IMG/VR virus record: IMGVR_UViG_3300002092_001548
Span: 1 to 64,000 of that record
Source: a virus
Length of the DNA stretch: 64,000 nucleotides
Reading direction: 5' to 3' (one strand)
Below, piece after piece: positions 1 through 10,233 of this stretch; within the stretch, counting starts at the first letter, position 1; each line of letters begins with the position of its first letter. Both the position numbers and the translations under genes were made by a program. The notes under the pieces were generated by a model that saw only the letters and a list, made by a program, of their open reading frames with translations, searched no databases and was not told the DNA's origin.

Positions 1-653
1 TGACTATTCTTAATCCGAATAAACATAACAGGAATACTTTGCGGTTCGACGACTACAACATTGAGTTCGACTTCACAAAGGTATCGTTCATCTTTGCCAC
101 TACTGACCCACAGAAGGTCATCACGCCCCTCAAGGACAGGTGCAAGATGGTTCACATGGAGGAGTATGGTTATGGCGAACTGGCAGAGATTGTCGAGGCT
201 AACAGCGAGGAGATCACCTATGATCCAGTTGTCCTCAAAGAGATCGCATCGACTTGCAGGGGCAACGCTAGGAATGCTACCCTCATGGCTAAAGATAACG
301 TAACGCAATTTGCGATGCGGCATAACATTCATGACATCGGGCACAAGGAGTGGGACGAGTTAAAGTGCGTCCTAGGAATCCTTCCCCTTGGACTAGAGAA
401 CACAGAGTTACAGGTCTTAAAGATCTTACGTGAGCGTGGAGCCTGTTCGTTAACAAATTTGAGTGCGGTTACTGGATTGTCCAGCAACTCCATTCGTTCA
501 GAGTTTGAGCTATATCTCTTGAAGCATGGGCTGATGGAAGTAGCACAAGGTGGTAGGAAGATTACAGCAAAGGGAGACCAGTATCTCACAGATTTAGATG
601 GATACTGCAACGAAAAAAAAACAAACCAGAGCTTTACTTTGGTCACAGAATAA
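1..653 (+). CDS. ruvB: RuvB-like AAA+ ATPase (Holliday junction helicase-like), 5'-truncated by window edge
   Basis: Frame open from nt 3. Motifs IFATT..PLKDRC (sensor 1/Arg finger), CRGNARNA, LGLENTELQVL and SLTNLSAVTG..ELYLLKHGLM..GGRKIT match the RuvB lid and C-terminal winged helix. Confidence 0.75.
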   Translation, partial: TILNPNKHNRNTLRFDDYNIEFDFTKVSFIFATTDPQKVITPLKDRCKMVHMEEYGYGELAEIVEANSEEITYDPVVLKEIASTCRGNARNATLMAKDNVTQFAMRHNIHDIGHKEWDELKCVLGILPLGLENTELQVLKILRERGACSLTNLSAVTGLSSNSIRSEFELYLLKHGLMEVAQGGRKITAKGDQYLTDLDGYCNEKKTNQSFTLVTE

Positions 654-805
654 TATATAACATACAACATGGACAAATACAATGACGGATCAATATCACT
701 ATTCTTATTATTTATCGCTAGTTGCCTAGTAGCATACGCACTGAATAAACGTTCAAAAGGAAATTCAATATTTACAAAAACACATAGACATTAATAATAA
801 ACAAA

Positions 806-991
806 ATGAAGTACTATAAAGTAATACTAGACAATGGGGATGAACTCTATCATGAGAGTAAGGTTCCCCTATCTCACGATCAATTAATCGAGGCACTCCA
901 GTTTGAGGCAAAGCTTTCCCCTGTAGAGGTGGACGAGGTTGTTGACCATGAGGAGATCGAAGAGGAAGAGTATGAAGAGAATTCGTTCTAG
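806..991 (+). CDS. small acidic hypothetical protein
   Basis: 61-aa ORF, ATG start, co-oriented with neighbours. Confidence 0.6.
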   Translation: MKYYKVILDNGDELYHESKVPLSHDQLIEALQFEAKLSPVEVDEVVDHEEIEEEEYEENSF

Positions 992-1006
992 AATTAAATA
1001 ATTTAA

Positions 1007-1035
1007 TTGCAAAGGTAACCAATAAATAATACTAT
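1007..1035 (+). promoter_or_regulatory. sigma70-type promoter, leaderless-type spacing
   Basis: TTGCAA-17-TACTAT, 6 nt before the ATG at 1042. Confidence 0.6.
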
Positions 1036-1041
1036 AACTAT

Positions 1042-1269
1042 ATGGCAAAAAACACAAACACAAACACAAAGGCAAAGTCAGTCACACCAGCGAAGCTAAA
1101 GAACGGGAGCATCTACGACTACAACGGTCGCACGGTTCGTCTCCGCCAGACGGTAGGGGCAGTCTGCACCCTGCGTGAGCCACACGGCGCGATCTTCATC
1201 GGTCGCACCAATATGCTCAAGCGTGTAGGAAAGACTCGCGTCGAGAAGTTCGTCGCCAAGTGTTCCTAA
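1042..1269 (+). CDS. small basic hypothetical protein
   Basis: 75-aa ORF with its own promoter. Confidence 0.65.
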   Translation: MAKNTNTNTKAKSVTPAKLKNGSIYDYNGRTVRLRQTVGAVCTLREPHGAIFIGRTNMLKRVGKTRVEKFVAKCS

Positions 1270-1285
1270 TAGGATAGAAGAAAGT

Positions 1286-1546
1286 ATGGCGAACTCCAAG
1301 CACGTTGAAGGGATACTAGAGACGATCCGTGGGTCAGACATTACAGAATGCTTCCTATCGGATCAGCCGATTGCGATCATAGGAATCGACACCTATCCAG
1401 AGGAGACGAACAATATCATTCTCCTCGGTAATGGTAAGAGGATAACAACCGACGACTTGGAGTTCGCCAACTGGGAGATTGTAGATAAGAATACACTGCA
1501 TATTCATTTAGGTAACTATAAGTTTGTTGGGCATAAGAGGGACTAG
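1286..1546 (+). CDS. hypothetical protein
   Basis: 86-aa ORF tightly following the previous gene. Confidence 0.6.
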   Translation: MANSKHVEGILETIRGSDITECFLSDQPIAIIGIDTYPEETNNIILLGNGKRITTDDLEFANWEIVDKNTLHIHLGNYKFVGHKRD

Positions 1547-1608
1547 AAGCGAACGATTTGGCGGCAAATAGAGAGCGCAAATACTCAGAGGAGTGTAATA
1601 AATATATT

Positions 1609-1710
1609 ATGTTGCATATCCTTTTAGAGAAAGCCGCCCTATTTGTCGTCTTCGTTTTTGGGGGTTGGTTGTTATGGAAAGGTTGGTTCGATATTAAGGA
1701 CGGACAATAG
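1609..1710 (+). CDS. small membrane peptide (33 aa)
   Basis: MLHILLEKAALFVVFVFGGWLLWKGWFDIKDGQ, preceded by GTGTAA at 1593. Confidence 0.4.
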   Translation: MLHILLEKAALFVVFVFGGWLLWKGWFDIKDGQ

Positions 1711-2111
1711 GCCAAATAGCACCTTCACCAGCCACCATGCAAGTAAACACCCCCAAGGTCATCTCTAAGAAAGAATGCAAGACAGCCCAGCCTCTCTTCC
1801 CCAGAGTTTATCCGCAGCAGATCTTGTCTCCAGAGCAGCGGACTTTGCAATTGAGGCGCAACAGCCTCTTCGCACGCTCTGTAGTGACAGGCCGCGTGAC
1901 TACTTTTTAAATGTTGAGTCAATCCAAGAAATCGACCGCGAGGACGAGGCCCACGAATAAGCGAACTAATCCGGTATAAATAGGTATATATTCCGGTATA
2001 GAGAAAGACAAGAATAGTCATATTAATAATAGAGTAGATTAGAACCTATATTGTAACCTAATTGTAACCTAATAGATAGGTAATTTTTTATTGTACTGGT
2101 TTGATTTGTTG

Positions 2112-2186
2112 TAAGTAGTTGATTATAAGGGACTTATGCGGCCGGGCCCCGCCGGGCGCCGTAACCTATTGGTATGTAGGCATTTA
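2112..2186 (-). repeat. intergenic element copy R1 (box-core-box, 25+25+25 bp)
   Basis: TAAGTAGTTGATTATAAGGGACTTA + TGCGGCCGGGCCCCGCCGGGCGCCG + TAACCTATTGGTATGTAGGCATTTA. Confidence 0.9.
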
Positions 2187-2207
2187 TGCCGATGCAATTT
2201 TAATGCA

Positions 2208-2243
2208 AAAAAAGTCGCCCCTAGCTTTACGCTAGAGGCGACC
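2208..2243 (-). terminator. intrinsic terminator after rIIB
   Basis: GTCGCC..TAGC/GCTA..GGCGAC hairpin with an A-run on + (U-run on -). Confidence 0.6.
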
Positions 2244-2264
2244 CCCATTTCTCAACCCAATCTT

Positions 2265-3131
2265 TTACTTGGCCTTGGCAACGAACCTCCCTTTGCCGTC
2301 CCTGACCTTGAAGTAGCGGTCGCCATTAGGCTTGCGTCCGTAGGTCTGGTTATCGTAATCCGAATACTCAACCTCGTCGCCCTCGTAGCTGTCCTCGTCA
2401 TAACCATCATAGTAGTTATTAGGAAGGGGAGCATCGAATGTTCCGACAACCTCGTAACGAGAAGTCCTCATCTTCTGGAAGTCGCAGTCGTGAGGAACCG
2501 AAACCACATCAGCAGGATTAACCTTGACGATGATAACCTTGCGATCACTTCCTCCGAAGTTGGTAGCATACTCAAGCGAACCAACATGGAAGCCATAACT
2601 GCATCCGTGATTAGCGTCATCACAGACAGAGTTACGAGGCATGGAGAGAACCTGTCCGATATTGTTATCGAACTTGCCAGAGTAGTGATCCGTCATATCA
2701 GGACGCACACTCTTGTAACCAAGGAAGTGACCATCGGGCGTAATTGGCATATTGCCATGCTCAAGAAAACTATACAATTCGTTGACAGACCTACGACTAG
2801 GATTGTCCATCAAATTGTCGAGGAACTTGAGGAGAGGCGTAGGAGGAATGTTCTCCTTGACGAAACCTAAAATCTTATCGACAATGGTTCCGTGGACTGC
2901 CTCGCCATTATAGAACACATGACCACCCTTAATATCGACATTCCCAACCGACCAATCGGCTACGGATTGTGCGACATCAACGAGAGCCAAAAGCTCCTCG
3001 GCAGTCGAGCCATTAACGATGCCGTCAATGATCTTCTGCCAGTTTTCGTGCGAACGCTGAATCGTGTATGGAGTATTCTCCAAGACGAGCGTGAGTGAAT
3101 TATCAGTTAGGATGTATGGGATGTCATTCAT
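2265..3131 (-). CDS. rIIB: rIIB-like protein
   Basis: PITPDGHFLGYKSVR, FDNNIG..MPRN, GCSYGFHVGSLEYA, KVNPADVVSVP..KMR..YEVV; lies next to rIIA. Start moved to ATG 3131, 6 nt after TTGATT-17-TATAAG. Confidence 0.85.
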   Translation of the reverse strand: MNDIPYILTDNSLTLVLENTPYTIQRSHENWQKIIDGIVNGSTAEELLALVDVAQSVADWSVGNVDIKGGHVFYNGEAVHGTIVDKILGFVKENIPPTPLLKFLDNLMDNPSRRSVNELYSFLEHGNMPITPDGHFLGYKSVRPDMTDHYSGKFDNNIGQVLSMPRNSVCDDANHGCSYGFHVGSLEYATNFGGSDRKVIIVKVNPADVVSVPHDCDFQKMRTSRYEVVGTFDAPLPNNYYDGYDEDSYEGDEVEYSDYDNQTYGRKPNGDRYFKVRDGKGRFVAKAK

Positions 3132-3198
3132 AAGACTCTTATAGTAAATCAAATTGTGAAAATCAACAAGGATTATTTTCAAAAATCTTTCATTGGCA

Positions 3199-3243
3199 TA
3201 AGTCGTTGATAATCAAGCACTTACGGCGCCGGGCCCCGCCGGG
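3199..3243 (-). repeat. intergenic element copy R2
   Basis: TAAGTCGTTGATAATCAAGCACTTA (near-perfect palindrome) + CGGCGCCGGGCCCCGCCGGG. Confidence 0.95.
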
Positions 3244-3269
3244 ATATTAGGTGATATTAAGTATAAAGG

Positions 3270-3305
3270 AAAAGGGTAGGATCGCCACCACAACGACCCT
3301 ACCCT
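3270..3305 (-). terminator. intrinsic terminator after rIIA
   Basis: AGGGTAGG..CCTACCCT hairpin with flanking A-run. Confidence 0.55.
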
Positions 3306-3322
3306 ACTCACCTCACCACAAT

Positions 3323-5539
3323 CTATCGGTTGAGATAGTCGAGGATGTTAGTGATTGCCTTCTCCCATCCCGACCATCTGAACGAACTCCAATCAATGTT
3401 ATTCAGAAGGGGAAAACTCTTCACTAGAGCTTTGCCGTTGTTATGAATATCAGTCGCAATCTTCTTGGAGTTGGTATTAGCCTCAACCAAGGTCATCTGT
3501 GGTGTATTCCTAACCACAAGAGCATCATACATAGCGATTGCCTTCTCTGACTCTGGCGATCCTGCTTTGCCATTGATAGCATCGAACACCGCACGAATAG
3601 TAGAAACCATATCTTTGTTCTTCAGTCCTGTAAGCAAAACCTTTTGAGCTTGCGTGTCCCGAAGGTTACGGAAGGGCAAATCGTTACATAATGCCCCTGC
3701 AATCCTGTTAGCGATTGCCATGTCAAGATTGATGCTCTTTGAAGCAATGAAGGACTCAAACTCTCCCTTGGAAGCCTCAAGGATGTGAACCCATCCCTTG
3801 CCGAGACTCTTCATCTGTGTGCCAGTAACACCGACAATAGATTGAGCCTTCAGCTTTGGAAACTTATCAAGAAAGCCCAGAAGGGTAGAGCTACTAACCC
3901 TAGAATCATTGATGATAGCTTGGTAGTTATTAACTTGGACATAGAATCCAGTTCCACCCTTCATGTCAATCTTTGCTTCCTTCCACGCCGACTTGTCACG
4001 ATAGTTCCTAGCATTAGTAGGATCAAAGGTTAGAACACCAGTCCTAGCAACCTTGCCCGAAGAGACACCGATAGCAGTTGCAGGGATAACGATGGAACTT
4101 GCGAGAACAAAGTCCTCGTCGCAATACCCATTGACACGCTTGATCTCTGCAAGTTGTGAGGCATAAAGAGAGAACTCCTCCTTCTTAACTGCTTTGGTAT
4201 CTTGGACTACACCATTCGTAATCTTGCGAACCTGTGGGGTGAACATATACACCCTGTTCTCCTTATTCGTAGAGGCAAGGTAACGAGCATTCCTCGCACC
4301 AGCGTTATACGATCCAGTATCGTTGAAAACTAGAACCGCACGACCATTAGCTTGAAAGCTATCCACAGAAAGAGAACGAACATTTCCGTTCCAGTTAGTC
4401 TCATACCGCATCAGATAAAATCCGAGCAATCCATCTTTAGACTTTTTGGCAACATCCGCATGATCGTTGATGATAGGAACACCCTTGAAGGTGATCTTAT
4501 CCAGAATCTTGCGAAGATGATAGAACCCATCTACAAAGTTATCCATGCTAAAGAGCAACTTTTTAGCACCGAATACACTCTTGGCAGACGAACCGATGTT
4601 CTTCTCGATATCCGCAACAATCTTATCCACAATCTCAAGTGATAGCTTGCGAATGTTCTGAAGCGTCCTATCAGTATATTGTAAGCCTTCACGACTCGCC
4701 GCAACATCCAAGTCACCGATCTCAAAATTGAGAACGATTGCACTAGACAGAAGGTTATAGATCCTCTTATCCTCATCTCTGCTCAAGTCGAGCTTCATGG
4801 ACGATACCGCCAACGGATAGCCGATGTTGCCCATGATTGCCGTGGCAACCGAAGCATTTTTATAGAATGCCCAACGATCACCCGAAGATATAGGAGGCAA
4901 GAACATATCCGATAGCTCTTGCTCGTTCATACCGATGATCTCTGGCTTGACCTTGAAGAAACGAAGATAGCGGTTGACCGACTTGTTAAACTCTCTGCAA
5001 TCCTCGCCCTTGACAGCGATACAGATTTCTACACCATTAGCCTCATCAGTAGCCTTGGAAGAAAGCGTTGCAATCTGACCGATGCCGCTAGGATCAATGA
5101 AGGCATTGTAGGAAGTAACTTTGCCGTCAACATAAGAATTGATTAAAAAGTTGTCACCATAAGCAAACGCACTCTTTGAGCCGAGGCCGAGTTGACCGAT
5201 GTATGCGTTGCTCTGGCGTTTCGTGCTTTCGCCATAGAAGCAATAAACCTCTTGAATATCCTCTGCGGTAAGACCACTTCCGAAGTCACGAACCTTAAAG
5301 GTTTTCTCAAGAGGAGAGGGGAGAGTTATGCGAATAGGGGTATCAGCGTTCCCTGCCTCGACATTAGCATCGTAGGCATTAGCGGAATACTCACGCACGA
5401 CTGCACCGATCTTATCGGTGTAGAGTTGGTTACGGAGAACATTGAAGATATGAGCAAGGCCAGAATCCTTGATGCCGAAAGCGACAGAGGATTTGATGCC
5501 AGCAGATTCTAGTGAGTTATATTTTTGTTCAGTTATCAT
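3323..5539 (-). CDS. rIIA: rIIA-like protein (N-terminal GHKL ATPase)
   Basis: LYTDKIGAVVREYSANAYDA, DFGSGL, YGESTKRQSN..IGQLGLGSKSAFAY and LDVAASREGL motifs; paired with rIIB. Confidence 0.85.
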   Translation of the reverse strand: MITEQKYNSLESAGIKSSVAFGIKDSGLAHIFNVLRNQLYTDKIGAVVREYSANAYDANVEAGNADTPIRITLPSPLEKTFKVRDFGSGLTAEDIQEVYCFYGESTKRQSNAYIGQLGLGSKSAFAYGDNFLINSYVDGKVTSYNAFIDPSGIGQIATLSSKATDEANGVEICIAVKGEDCREFNKSVNRYLRFFKVKPEIIGMNEQELSDMFLPPISSGDRWAFYKNASVATAIMGNIGYPLAVSSMKLDLSRDEDKRIYNLLSSAIVLNFEIGDLDVAASREGLQYTDRTLQNIRKLSLEIVDKIVADIEKNIGSSAKSVFGAKKLLFSMDNFVDGFYHLRKILDKITFKGVPIINDHADVAKKSKDGLLGFYLMRYETNWNGNVRSLSVDSFQANGRAVLVFNDTGSYNAGARNARYLASTNKENRVYMFTPQVRKITNGVVQDTKAVKKEEFSLYASQLAEIKRVNGYCDEDFVLASSIVIPATAIGVSSGKVARTGVLTFDPTNARNYRDKSAWKEAKIDMKGGTGFYVQVNNYQAIINDSRVSSSTLLGFLDKFPKLKAQSIVGVTGTQMKSLGKGWVHILEASKGEFESFIASKSINLDMAIANRIAGALCNDLPFRNLRDTQAQKVLLTGLKNKDMVSTIRAVFDAINGKAGSPESEKAIAMYDALVVRNTPQMTLVEANTNSKKIATDIHNNGKALVKSFPLLNNIDWSSFRWSGWEKAITNILDYLNR

Positions 5540-5615
5540 GGTGTGTTGGTGTGTAGTGTGAATCCTTATAGTCGTATTTTTTGCCCCATGTGTCAACAGG
5601 TATTTTCACTATTCA

Positions 5616-5660
5616 TAAAGTGTTCAATATCAACTACTTACGGCGCCGGGCCCCGCCGGG
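5616..5660 (-). repeat. intergenic element copy R3
   Basis: TAAAGTGTTCAATATCAACTACTTA + CGGCGCCGGGCCCCGCCGGG. Confidence 0.9.
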
Positions 5661-5678
5661 CATGTTATATAAGTTAAG

Positions 5679-5750
5679 TGGGATCGTCGAGACTCGAACT
5701 CGAAACCAATTCGTTAAAAGCGAACTGCTCTACCATTGAGCTACGATCCC
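5679..5750 (-). tRNA. tRNA-Lys(TTT)
   Basis: GGGATCGTAGCTCAATGGTAGAGC..CTTTTAA..GTTCGAGTC..CGATCCCA cloverleaf. Confidence 0.92.
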
Positions 5751-5753
5751 GAA

Positions 5754-5825
5754 TGCTTTCAGTAGGAATCGAACCTACATTAAGACTTTAGAAGAGTCCT
5801 GTCCTATCCGTTGAACGATGAAAGC
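5754..5825 (-). tRNA. tRNA-Arg(TCT)
   Basis: GCTTTCA/TGAAAGC acceptor stem, anticodon loop CTTCTAA, GGTTCGATTCC T-arm. Confidence 0.9.
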
Positions 5826-5912
5826 TAAATTCCTAGTCCGTCGTATTCTTCATTCATATATTTTTTTTGATAGTGTGGGTTCGAATCTCGATAATAGATG
5901 TAATTGTATTGT

Positions 5913-6545
5913 ATGTCAACGAATAAATTGAAAATCAAACTCTTGAAAGAGAAAGCTAAGAAGCATCAGTGTGAAAATTGTGGTCTAGAATCTTGGCAGG
6001 GAGGCAAAATTCCCATTGAGCTTCATCATATAGATGGTAATCCTAAAAATAATGATATCAATAATCTTCAAATTTTATGTCCAAATTGTCACGCATTAAC
6101 TAATAATTATAGGGGGCGTAACAAGAAAAGAATTCAAAAAGGAAAGTTTATAACTGATGATGAGATTGCTTTGGCTATAACTGAATGTTATAATAGGAGA
6201 CAAGTTTTACTTTTTCTTGGGATGACTGGGTATGGGGCGAGTTACGAAAGAATTAATAAAGTAATACAAGAAAGAGGAGTAGTGTTTAAAGAAGGCGCTT
6301 TAAGGGATAGGTCTACTAAATATATAAAATCCATAAATGAAAAATACGGATCTTTAAAAGAGGTTTTTAAAAAGAAAGTTAATTGGCCAACTAAAGAAGA
6401 ATTAGAGGAGATGCTAAAGAATGAGTCGGCAGTGCAGATTGGAAAAAAACTAGGTGTTTCAGATAATGCAGTTAGAAAAGCCGCTAAGAGATATGGTATA
6501 GATATTCGTTCTATCAGTAAGTGGAGCAAAAAACATGGTAGTTAA
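5913..6545 (+). CDS. HNH endonuclease with C-terminal HTH
   Basis: CENC..ELHHIDGN..NN..NL..LCPNCH; C-terminal SAVQIGKKLGVSDNAVRK HTH. Confidence 0.9.
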   Translation: MSTNKLKIKLLKEKAKKHQCENCGLESWQGGKIPIELHHIDGNPKNNDINNLQILCPNCHALTNNYRGRNKKRIQKGKFITDDEIALAITECYNRRQVLLFLGMTGYGASYERINKVIQERGVVFKEGALRDRSTKYIKSINEKYGSLKEVFKKKVNWPTKEELEEMLKNESAVQIGKKLGVSDNAVRKAAKRYGIDIRSISKWSKKHGS

Positions 6546-7501: not shown

Positions 7502-8245
7502 CTAACTCTCTAGACAAAAGCTCCAGTAACGGCTATCGGTTTGAGATTGGTTAATATCCCACCAGATGCAACGAGCGACATATGGTGACACATTCCACAT
7601 TTTGCACATACTAACCCAATGAGTCTCCATTGCCTCGTAGTGCTTGGAGTCTTTAGTCTGATCCAGACCATAGACTTGGAAGAGGTGAGTGTCCATGCAG
7701 ACTGCTTCACACTCCGCTGAATAAACCATCTCTAGAGAGAAGGAAACCTTTGCCATGCCGAGTCCGAGAACCTTGTCAACCAAACGATTGCGGAATTCTT
7801 GCCAAGTCTCCTCATCAGTCTTCTTGAAAGATTCGGGATTGCTCCAGAACATCTGGGCGAACTCGCTAATAAAACGAGTGCGGTTCTTGTGCAAGCCTGC
7901 TCCAGAGGAGACGATCCGCTTTTCCAGTTCCTCGTTATTGTTAAGCCACTCCCACCAGTTACGGATGGCAAGATACCCTGTCACATTCGACCTCCAAGAG
8001 GTATGAACAGACATGAAGGCAAAAAGCCAGCGACGAAAGATTTCGCTATCACCTTTAGGGGCGACTGACTGCCAGTAGTCTGAATAGCGACTGATCGTAT
8101 CTGAATCCAGAGAGTTGAAGAACTTTTCTACTTTCGTCGGGTTAAACCCAGAGCGACGAGTAGGGAGGATATTAAGATTATTATCCAAGAATTGGGATTG
8201 TCTGATTGCATTGAGTGAAGTTCCGATGAAGTCTAGTTGTGTCAT
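7502..8245 (-). CDS. HhH-GPD superfamily DNA glycosylase-like protein
   Basis: VLGLGMAKVSF helix-hairpin-helix with Lys, followed by VCMDTH (catalytic Asp position). Confidence 0.65.
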   Translation of the reverse strand: MTQLDFIGTSLNAIRQSQFLDNNLNILPTRRSGFNPTKVEKFFNSLDSDTISRYSDYWQSVAPKGDSEIFRRWLFAFMSVHTSWRSNVTGYLAIRNWWEWLNNNEELEKRIVSSGAGLHKNRTRFISEFAQMFWSNPESFKKTDEETWQEFRNRLVDKVLGLGMAKVSFSLEMVYSAECEAVCMDTHLFQVYGLDQTKDSKHYEAMETHWVSMCKMWNVSPYVARCIWWDINQSQTDSRYWSFCLES

Positions 8246-8291: not shown

Positions 8292-8867
8292 CTATTGGGC
8301 AAGAACTTTCTGCGAGAAACTTTTCCAGATCATAAGGTCGAGATCAGCGGGATTCATTTCGCGTTTCCATGCCTCTGTCAAGAATTGTTTTTCAAGAATA
8401 GCATAACGCTTTTTTGTAGGCGTTTGTTTGGGCGCACTATATCCTTGCTCCCTCATCCACTTGAGAATATGGACATCAAGAACCGCAACCTTTGCATCAG
8501 CACGAGAGTGTAAGACAAAAAACCTTGCAGTCTTGCTACCAATTCCTTTAATACTCTCAAGTTCTTCGATAGTCACCTTCTTGAGCTTACCCTTGAACTT
8601 TAAAATCTCCTTGAATGCATGGCCAACACGATTGTATTGACCTAGCTTATGCCTCATCATCTCTTTAGTAAGACAATAGTTTGCAATGATATGCTCAAGA
8701 TACCTAAAGGGAGAATGGTTGCAAGAAGGGTAATAAGAAAGAAACTGGTCGAGCTTCTTGGCTTGCATCTCTGCTCCCTTTCCTGCAACGAGGATTGCGA
8801 ACATAAGGAACTCCTCAAGATCAGCTTCGGTGCGATTGAAGTTGGTGATAGTGGTTGGTGTTATCAT
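8292..8867 (-). CDS. HhH-GPD DNA glycosylase/AP lyase-like (OGG-like)
   Basis: LESIKGIGSKTARFF HhH, AVLDVHILKW, YAILEKQF, DLDLMIW. Confidence 0.75.
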   Translation of the reverse strand: MITPTTITNFNRTEADLEEFLMFAILVAGKGAEMQAKKLDQFLSYYPSCNHSPFRYLEHIIANYCLTKEMMRHKLGQYNRVGHAFKEILKFKGKLKKVTIEELESIKGIGSKTARFFVLHSRADAKVAVLDVHILKWMREQGYSAPKQTPTKKRYAILEKQFLTEAWKREMNPADLDLMIWKSFSQKVLAQ

Positions 8868-9146: not shown

Positions 9147-9356
9147 TTAGAATGCGAATGTTTGCGAATGTTTCAATGGCTCGACCTTGTATCGAAAGGA
9201 AGGCTCAGGATTTGGATGCTTAAAAAATAAAGCCCAAATAGAAATCACTAGACAAAACCATATAAAAAAGTTTCCGATTAGCGCGTAGACAATAGGATTG
9301 AGTTTCATTTCTAGGGTTTTTTGAAAATACGTTTTTGAAAGTTCTAAATTTTTCAT
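9147..9356 (-). CDS. small membrane protein
   Basis: one hydrophobic segment IVYALIGNFFIWFCLVISIWALFF; start may be 9308. Confidence 0.5.
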   Translation of the reverse strand: MKNLELSKTYFQKTLEMKLNPIVYALIGNFFIWFCLVISIWALFFKHPNPEPSFRYKVEPLKHSQTFAF

Positions 9357-9358
9357 TT

Positions 9359-9526
9359 TTAGAGTTCCGTATACAGCTTGTATTCGATCTCATGCAAACG
9401 ATCCGTGCGTTGCATTGTTGCAAGCCAACTCTCATGAGTGCAGTTAAGAATCGACATCAATAAGAGGGAGGGTTTACGGATTTCGTATCCAAATAGCTTT
9501 AATAAAAGTGTTATAGGATCTCTCAT
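9359..9526 (-). CDS. small hypothetical protein
   Basis: ATG 9526 lies 7 nt after TTGACA-17-TACCAT. Confidence 0.55.
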   Translation of the reverse strand: MRDPITLLLKLFGYEIRKPSLLLMSILNCTHESWLATMQRTDRLHEIEYKLYTEL

Positions 9527-9568
9527 GGCTTTTATGGTATGGGTTTTTGTTTGGGTTGTCAACTAAAA

Positions 9569-9710
9569 TGGAGCACAGAGTGAGATTTGAACTCACCAAA
9601 AAAGGTCGGAGAAGGATCAGGTCGCTAGTGTCCGATGCCGCCCCCCTAGTGAACTAGCGTTAGCCTCTCGACGCACCCCCTCATTGCCTTCCCCGATTAA
9701 TTTTCCGTGC
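9569..9710 (-). ncRNA. tRNA-like structured RNA (acceptor stem + T-arm + CCA, non-tRNA body), 142 nt
   Basis: 5' GCACGGA pairs with TCTGTGC-T-CCA; T-arm GTGAG-TTCAAAT-CTCAC; inner helices TCGGGGAAGG/CCTTCTCCGA and CGCTAGT/ACTAGCG; no D or anticodon arm. Confidence 0.7.
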
Positions 9711-9978
9711 AAAATGGAATCCGGAGGGGAAGAGTCCTCCGGACTTTGGGTTTTACTTCCTACATTTTATAAAATTGTCCCTGCCACTCCGTCGAGTGCT
9801 ACCCCCTACATGATCTTATTCATCATAGAGGTTGGTGACTGCACGATACGATTGCAGAACACACAGGGTTTTTGCTCTCTGCCTTTTGCTCCGACTTGAG
9901 ACGGACAACCTTTCGATTGGTAGCATTACAAAGATCGTCCTAGTTGTGTTAGACACTGCTAGGTCAGTGCTTATTCTT

Positions 9979-10007
9979 ATAGTACTACTCTTTGCCAGTC
10001 GGGTCAA
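9979..10007 (-). promoter_or_regulatory. sigma70-type promoter firing into a ~400-nt non-coding region
   Basis: TTGACC-17-TACTAT with no adjacent ATG. Confidence 0.6.
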
Positions 10008-10233
10008 CATTTATTTCTGGAAAAGTTTGCACATCGAAATAACAGAGTAGTTCAATCAGCTTATCCAACGCTACCTCTAGCCCCTTAACCGAATCAAAAT
10101 CTTCAGTGTTTTTAATTTCATCTACTAAATAACTTTCAAGGTTAACGCATACTGCGCGCCACCTCCCTGCGTTACAGGCATCACGAAACCGTACAGAATC
10201 TTTTGGTAAATTAAAGTGGAGGGTCGCATCCAT
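9985..10233 (-). CDS. hypothetical phage protein (similar to 23277-23498)
   Basis: MDATLHFNLP..NAGRWRAVC versus MKATLEFDLP..NGAHWKGVC. Confidence 0.65.
   Translation of the reverse strand: MDATLHFNLPKDSVRFRDACNAGRWRAVCVNLESYLVDEIKNTEDFDSVKGLEVALDKLIELLCYFDVQTFPEINVDPTGKE

Follow-up and report, generated by a model that had tools for sequence, protein, structure and literature searches.

The first 64 kb of the virus record IMGVR_UViG_3300002092_001548 (64,000 nucleotides, the whole stretch that was analysed, hereafter the window) belong to a freshwater phage record of 138,208 bases that is 89% complete, and they carry on the minus strand, at positions 9710..9569, a 142-nt element in which the ends of a tRNA-Cys are joined to a conserved phage RNA module. 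Our judgement leans modestly towards reading this chimera as a natural tRNA-scaffolded small RNA (sRNA) that would be cut out by RNase P and whose active part would be the module. Comparison at the level of sequence establishes the two origins of the element, the boundaries between its domains, the helix and interior of the module, and the insertion relative to close relatives.

A first-pass annotation of this DNA had listed an acceptor stem, a discriminator U followed by CCA, a T-arm, a 10-bp helix and a pair of inner 7-mers, and all of them were found on the minus strand at 9710..9569. The acceptor stem GCACGGA/TCTGTGC is 7 bp long with a G.U at pair 5-68, its 5' strand lying at RNA positions 1–7 (9704..9710) and its 3' strand, together with the discriminator U73 and the encoded CCA, at RNA positions 132–142 (9569..9579). 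The T-arm (GTGAG-TTCAAAT-CTCAC, RNA positions 115–131, 9580..9596) abuts the acceptor 3' strand and has a canonical T-loop and a G53-C61-type closing pair. Pair 3-70 is A-U, and the G3-U70 pair of transfer-messenger RNA (tmRNA) is absent, as had been stated. The 107 nt between the acceptor 5' strand and the T-arm hold a 10-bp helix, TCGGGGAAGG/CCTTCTCCGA, with one G.U. This closing helix, P1 (5' strand at RNA positions 15–24, 9687..9696; 3' strand at RNA positions 96–105, 9606..9615), belongs to the module, which covers RNA positions ~12–113 (9598..9699) and is composed of AAUC, the 5' strand of P1, a near-invariant interior, the 3' strand of P1 and a run of six U residues. The U6 run (RNA positions 108–113, 9598..9603) lies two bases past P1 and precedes the T-arm, and is possibly an intrinsic terminator within the chimera. 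In the minimum-free-energy structure calculated by RNAfold the acceptor stem, the T-arm and the 10-bp helix are all formed; the fold energy alone is weak evidence (z = −1.95, with 5 of 200 shuffled sequences equally stable), and it is homology rather than energy that raises the element above chance.

ARAGORN called five tRNAs in the window, none at 9710..9569, and neither a tRNA nor a tmRNA at the element, while Rfam 15 gave nothing at the gathering score on the element and nothing at E ≤ 10 on its strand, RF00005 included. The element is therefore no tRNA, tmRNA or known Rfam family by these two programs, and it is not an intron-containing tRNA, since the D and anticodon arms are both gone. 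A descriptor consisting of T-arm, acceptor and NCCA with a complementary 5' strand ≤260 nt upstream was scanned over 470,418 bases, giving 261 tRNA-sized matches and 7 longer ones; six of the seven end at ordinary tRNAs called by ARAGORN, and the seventh is the chimera. No match to positions 9300–10000 was found by blastn in 50,697 GenBank phage records. A single-sequence covariance model of the element (R1), which is too specific for relatives, was run over the window, G000, G001, L002–L008 and the T4 region, and it recovered the chimera only, with T4 tRNA-Leu and tRNA-Gly as weak matches.

The frame, that is, the acceptor stem, T-arm, U73 and CCA at RNA positions 1–7 and 115–142, is, judged by sequence, derived from a phage tRNA-Cys(GCA). 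The last 28 nt of the chimera are identical to the tRNA-Cys(GCA) gene of L024 at 28 of 28 positions and the first 7 nt at 6 of 7, the acceptor 5' strand being one base off the tRNA-Cys relatives (GCACAGA), which gives G5.U68. A 24-mer spanning the T-arm and the acceptor 3' strand occurred in 20 viral contigs, in every case (20/20) within an ordinary tRNA-Cys(GCA) gene, as called by ARAGORN, of a tRNA-rich phage. An exact 29-mer of the 3' frame had no match in viral contigs, and relaxing two loop bases led to 20 tRNA-Cys loci. The 24-mer had no exact match in the prokaryotic species genomes scanned, a search that diverged copies would escape. The acceptor features that had been attributed to tRNA-Gly (G1-C72, C2-G71 and U73) thus come from the tRNA-Cys(GCA) lineage.

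Both joins fall exactly at tRNA positions 7|8 and 48|49, so that the acceptor/T-arm minihelix is whole, the D and anticodon arms are wholly gone, and the module stands in for tRNA positions 8–48. The view of a tRNA-derived acceptor/T-arm/CCA frame around a non-tRNA body was borne out in this way by sequence and homology alike. A GCA anticodon is not present in the element, from which the anticodon arm is missing, and the proposal of a decoy for anticodon nucleases finds no support for the same reason. As sources of the frame we rejected the tRNA-Cys of the phage itself (G000 132459-132537, intact) and that of its relative L007; both have different stems, indicating that the frame came from another phage lineage.

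The body of the chimera is found elsewhere without the frame. Its core 24-mer occurred in 10 viral contigs and a second pattern added L042, giving 11 other phage contigs with the module; in the prokaryotic species genomes the core had no exact match, where diverged copies would be missed. At E ≤ 10, neither the window copy of the module nor that of L012 had an Rfam match. The description of the RNA as uncharacterised accordingly holds as regards Rfam, but the body is not unique to it, being a pre-existing module that stands alone in 11 contigs and that apparently represents an undescribed structured RNA family. A covariance model of the module (R2; other models were A3 and A4) found one copy per phage record, at the known loci and in the window, the window copy scoring 123 bits (E = 1e-29) among 11 matches. 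Over 94 nt (positions 12–105) the module of the chimera is 90.4% identical to the free-standing copy in L014.

Conservation of the 10-bp helix was confirmed on these homologues: P1 and a 5-bp extension show compensatory changes in 7 of 15 pairs with 100% of cells paired (9 distinct sequences), a value reached by 0 of 500 shuffles, and slid controls gave at most 2. The interior of ~57 nt is nearly invariant. In the inner 7-bp helix CGCTAGT/ACTAGCG five pairs never vary, one alternates between G-C and G.U, and one is broken in L015. With so little variation in the interior, a nested fold fits as well as the 7-bp helix (which would form a pseudoknot with a UCGA helix).

The other 11 copies lie 200–1000 nt downstream of a tRNA-Gln(UUG), with a promoter and variable 5' domains ahead of the module, and they usually close with a U-run some 45 nt short of a gene; a U-run after P1 is seen in 8 of 9 other full-length or 3'-complete copies. 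None of the 11 has a T-arm or acceptor strand adjoining the module (the 5' end of L011 is truncated). In the window copy the U-run is retained, with the tRNA 5' strand in place of the 5' domain and the T-arm after the U-run, so that here the module is not a free-standing unit. The chimera is confined to the lineage of the window phage (1 of 12 module copies, 0 of 20 tRNA-Cys loci). Two module-bearing records are ~41–44 kb long at 66–70% completeness, so that the phages behind them are not of the 138-kb kind, and the module thus spans two or more unrelated kinds of freshwater phage. Contigs of four lake or freshwater DNA runs were aligned to positions 9400–10050: the phage flanks had a depth of 14–70, whereas positions ~9599–9698 had a summed depth of 434–6268, 25–95 times the phage's own depth. 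This depth came from many short contigs with at least 6 different sequences beyond one side of the module and at least 5 beyond the other, and none of the 3' continuations was a T-arm.

Different 5' pieces are shared among the free-standing copies. In six contigs (L010, L012–L015 and L042) the small RNA begins, ahead of the module, with the motif GYGGGRAUYUUYRGUGAAM, and L009 and L018 share another 5' piece, GCUGGUUGCAUUGGAAAUAUCCGAUGG, indicating that the module is combined with interchangeable 5' domains. An abiF RNA motif (RF03085, gathering score 37) lies ~100 nt upstream of the module in L018 (6150-6186 (+), 41.9 bits) and in L014 (2201-2237 (−), 40.9 bits); the open reading frames (ORFs) listed beside the L014 copy do not look like abiF, judged by appearance and without a Pfam check, and phage abiF-type RNA may be an antitoxin-RNA decoy. 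The invariant core, the occurrence in unrelated phages, the absence from the cellular genomes scanned and the location in small-RNA islands together point to a trans-acting RNA that would bind a conserved host or phage partner.

Four related loci, to which neighbouring proteins and a conserved upstream 28-mer had led, were compared with the window. L005 (73–80% DNA identity) aligns to 10053..9771 and again to 9570..9178, and ~200 nt with the whole element are missing from it; L007 is arranged like L005, with neither the GC-rich hairpin that precedes the chimera in the window nor the chimera itself. This hairpin, CCGGAGG..CCTCCGG followed by ATTCCATTTT (9720..9743 (−)), is also present in L008, within a 60-nt segment where compensatory changes give GGCGGAGG/CCUCCGCC instead of CCGGAGG/CCUCCGG; L008 has no chimera, and after UUCCAUUU it runs straight into the next promoter. 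Comparison with L005, L007 and L008 thus shows that a unit of ~146–150 nt is found only in the window phage. A probe with the helix-hairpin-helix (HhH) protein yielded one relative, L002, with a twister-like element and no chimera, and rIIA as a probe yielded no related locus. An 8-nt direct repeat, TCCATTTT (9718..9711 and 9572..9565 (−)), flanks the segment absent from L008; its second copy is U73, CCA and TTTT, and the bracketed segment is exactly G1 to C72. The repeat may be a target duplication, a microhomology join or a coincidence. In addition, a diverged variant of the phage was present in the runs X4 and X5 of another study, differing at 9586, 9700, 9701 and 9711 and containing both junctions between frame and module. 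This variant has 9779–9971 (the twister and most of the following segment) swapped for 120 other letters, with the promoter side and the chimera kept.

For the tRNA-scaffolded sRNA we propose the following course. Lacking its own promoter, the unit would be transcribed by read-through from the sigma-70-like promoter TTGACC-17-TACTAT at 9979..10007 (−), the sole promoter-like site found upstream of the chimera on that strand; none was found directly upstream. RNase P would recognise the 12-bp acceptor/T-arm stack, the T-loop and NCCA and would cut between U9711 and G9710, the encoded CCA would stop 3' trimming, and the tRNA-like ends would protect the 142-nt RNA that carries the module, which would then act in trans on a host or phage partner. 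We infer these steps of transcription, RNase P processing, stabilisation and action in trans; the features expected of an RNase P substrate, namely U at −1, G at +1, the 12-bp stack, the T-loop and NCCA, are present in the element. According to the portion of PMC4919913 available to us, RNase P measures the T-arm/acceptor stack and requires the T-loop but not the D-loop, and engineered tRNA scaffolds are described in the accessible text of PMC3753655 as yielding precisely processed, stable RNAs in bacteria. A unit that has neither promoter nor terminator of its own needs excision signals, and these the tRNA minihelix would supply. Joins placed exactly on helix boundaries, the kept G.U pair and the persistence of both junctions in the diverged variant count in favour of function.

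Several observations weigh on the other side. The terminator-like hairpin at 9743–9720 stands between the sole upstream promoter and the chimera and ends the unit in L008; it is likely the terminator of the upstream non-coding RNA (ncRNA) unit, so that the chimera would need read-through. If the U6 run before the T-arm stops transcription, as the U-run probably does in the other phages, the T-arm and CCA would often go unmade. The stems of the frame show no compensatory changes, the only variant seen altering linker and loop bases. With its 3' frame matching functional tRNA-Cys genes at 100% identity, the chimera may be young, and its intactness is then no proof of selection. Finally, only one phage lineage has it.

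These observations also fit the chief rival explanation, which we regard as unlikely, though with an appreciable share of belief: an illegitimate recombination between a tRNA-Cys gene, or a copy of one, and the module, leaving a scar that is silent or of which only the module part is made, ending at its own U-run, with tRNA-like ends that do nothing. The surviving U6 run, the upstream hairpin combined with the lack of an own promoter, the restriction to one lineage and the 28/28 identity to tRNA-Cys genes, suggestive of a recent event, would all be expected of such a scar. So would the separate, intact tRNA-Cys of another lineage that the phage already has, and the mosaic nature of the region, with hairpin and chimera both missing from L005 and L007, the chimera alone missing from L008, and the twister segment swapped in X4/X5. 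On the other hand, both breakpoints lie on helix boundaries, the acceptor stem, T-arm, U73 and CCA are complete, and remnants of the D and anticodon arms are absent. A 7-nt complement ≤260 nt upstream of a T-arm/acceptor arose by chance in only 6 of the 261 tRNA-sized matches, and the sole difference of the 5' strand from the relatives still pairs, as G.U. Both junctions, moreover, persist in the diverged variant from another study.

A broader proposal, which we consider improbable, takes the module as a new functional RNA class, highly abundant in lakes (a decoy for a host-defence or RNA-binding factor, or catalytic), that is carried in interchangeable biogenesis cassettes, namely promoter plus terminator, ribozyme-headed arrays and the tRNA-Cys minihelix, and supposes in addition that the frame, besides being cut by RNase P, is charged via U73 by the host's cysteinyl-tRNA synthetase (CysRS), so that an aminoacylated RNA without decoding ability would reach EF-Tu or the ribosome. 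A shade less credible still is the aminoacylatable tRNA mimic as such, in which CysRS would charge the U73 minihelix and the RNA would function through cysteine, EF-Tu or the ribosome as a sensor, a sink or in a trans-translation-like manner. U73, G1-C72 and CCA are inherited from tRNA-Cys, and, as stated in the part of PMC9976931 that was accessible, cysteine identity depends chiefly on U73 and the GCA anticodon, and a minihelix acquires it from U73 alone. The succession of acceptor, linker, long helix, pseudoknot-capable interior and T-arm also resembles the tRNA-like domain of tmRNA. The other determinants, however, that is, the GCA anticodon and the tRNA core, are missing from the element, and the module has no acceptor end of any kind in 11 of its 12 copies. 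As to the likeness to tmRNA, the element has no G3.U70, no tmRNA was called by ARAGORN, no tmRNA-family Rfam match appeared at E ≤ 10, and a whole-genome search with RF00023 misses the element; the phage has its own full-length tmRNA of 433 nt outside the window (G000 128700-129132 (+), RF00023 97.4 bits, ARAGORN tag AKAITNAVSAVKSAMTNVVEFFCEEESYALAA), located within a second cluster of 13 tRNA genes. A small tmRNA was rejected on these grounds.

We also weighed whether the body is a tiny mRNA for a 19-aa peptide (V/M-x-REANAS-L/S-LG-G/R-RHRT-L/S-AT) starting with GUG or AUG after a GGAGG-like stretch, and find this very unlikely. All 9 distinct copies keep the frame open, starting with GUG in eight and AUG in one and having a purine-rich stretch 9–10 nt upstream; but of the 8 columns that vary across the 60-nt frame a single one falls at a third codon position, and no other third position changes. 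This is the reverse of what coding would produce and indicates a constraint on the RNA, and the GGAGG-like stretch serves as the 5' strand of P1, the helix that covaries. Fragments of tRNA 3' ends of such length are typical of integrative elements, and yet an attP-type remnant, with the 3' part of a host tRNA as integration site and a coincidental upstream complement, can hardly be entertained: the prokaryotic species genomes scanned contain no exact copy of the 24-mer, which is carried instead by 20 phage tRNA-Cys genes, the acceptor stem has its matching 5' strand, and the phage is a 138-kb virus bearing rIIA and 18 tRNAs.

The gene neighbourhood on the minus strand runs from the promoter at 10007–9979 through a twister-like ribozyme, a segment of ~100 nt and the hairpin to the chimera, beyond which the promoter of the next gene begins 7 nt on. 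The twister-P1-like ribozyme (9871..9932 (−), Rfam 45.3 bits, below the gathering score of 67.2) heads a non-coding unit, and copies of it occur in L005 (123-211), L007 (10294-10194 (−)), L008 (9030-9124; 32.9 bits, also under the gathering score) and L002 (5338-5435). The core strings AAUGCUAC, GUCUCAAGUC and GCAGAGAGCAA are common to the five phages, and variable inserts give lengths of 62–101 nt. Directly after the twister lies a conserved, structured segment of ~100 nt (9771–9870 (−)) in which the stem CCCUG/CAGGG closes three hairpins; one of these hairpins, CCUCUA/UAGGGG, is CCCCAG/CUGGGG in L007 and L008, and L008 has a second, diverged tandem copy of this type of segment, which itself has no Rfam match. 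The promoter past the CCA, TTGACA-17-TACCAT (9534..9562 (−)), belongs to a downstream gene of 55 aa (ATG at 9526), whose protein forms one cluster with 9 members and is found on at least 19 contigs. A metagenome scan with this protein gave 3 loci, among which L004 begins too near the gene to inform and L006 is too distant. Two neighbouring genes, 7502-8245 (−) and 8292-8867 (−), both match the Ogg-HhH glycosylase family PF22175 (25.6 and 34.2 bits, respectively), the latter additionally matching phrog_11575. The phage record as a whole carries rIIA, 18 tRNA genes and the tmRNA.

The nearest natural analogue of the chimera is the species 1 RNA of phage T4 (rnaC, 139 nt), which with species 2 (rnaD, 119 nt) belongs to the small stable phage RNAs of the T4 tRNA cluster and the roles of which, like those of species 2, remain unknown according to the portion of PMC3014915 available. 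Towards the 3' end of T4 rnaC stands a T-arm hairpin, CCGGG-TTCGAAT-CCCGG, and the RNA also has a weak end-to-end stem, with long non-tRNA hairpins in between. There is no similarity of sequence or model between the two (R1 misses rnaC at E ≤ 10), and only the general layout is alike; moreover, the T4 RNAs are not known as a tRNA frame with a separately occurring module, whereas for the chimera both sources are identified. The engineered tRNA scaffold of Ponchon and Dardel likewise places a foreign structured RNA in a tRNA that is processed and protected by factors of the cell, as described in the accessible text of PMC3753655. It keeps the D-arm and swaps the anticodon stem-loop only, whereas the chimera has something else in place of D-arm, anticodon arm and variable loop alike, and it is natural, its processing being putative. 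The tRNA-like domain of tmRNA also combines an acceptor stem and T-arm with single-stranded linkers and a long helix leading to a structured interior, as in the chimera, and tmRNA is an RNase P substrate (PMC4919913, in the portion available). The chimera differs from it in size (142 nt versus about 350 nt) and in having A3-U70 in place of G3.U70. Phage tRNA-Cys(GCA), for example that of L024, has the same T-arm, acceptor 3' strand, U73 and CCA; without an anticodon, the chimera cannot decode.

Non-coding RNAs with tRNA-like modules for recognition or processing by tRNA enzymes are also found in YrlA, the bacterial and phage Y RNA-like molecule, and in the TMERs of gammaherpesviruses. In YrlA the RNA ends form a Ro-binding stem and the tRNA-like part is internal, and in TMERs the hairpins come after the tRNA-like unit, not inside it. 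The earlier suggestion of a Y RNA-like molecule found no support in the element, which has no Rfam match at E ≤ 10 and whose RNA ends form a tRNA acceptor stem. None of the open-access full texts searched was found to describe a tRNA-sRNA chimera occurring naturally in a phage, supplements lying outside this search.

The setting of the module in small-RNA islands, beside tRNAs, a twister-like ribozyme and orphan abiF-type RNAs, suggests that it serves host takeover or counter-defence. Should the chimera be processed in the proposed way, phages would have hit on the tRNA-scaffold trick independently, and the bare acceptor/T-arm minihelix would be a portable excision-and-stability cassette for regulatory RNA. 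It would also give a concrete model for what the species 1 and species 2 RNAs of T4 might be.

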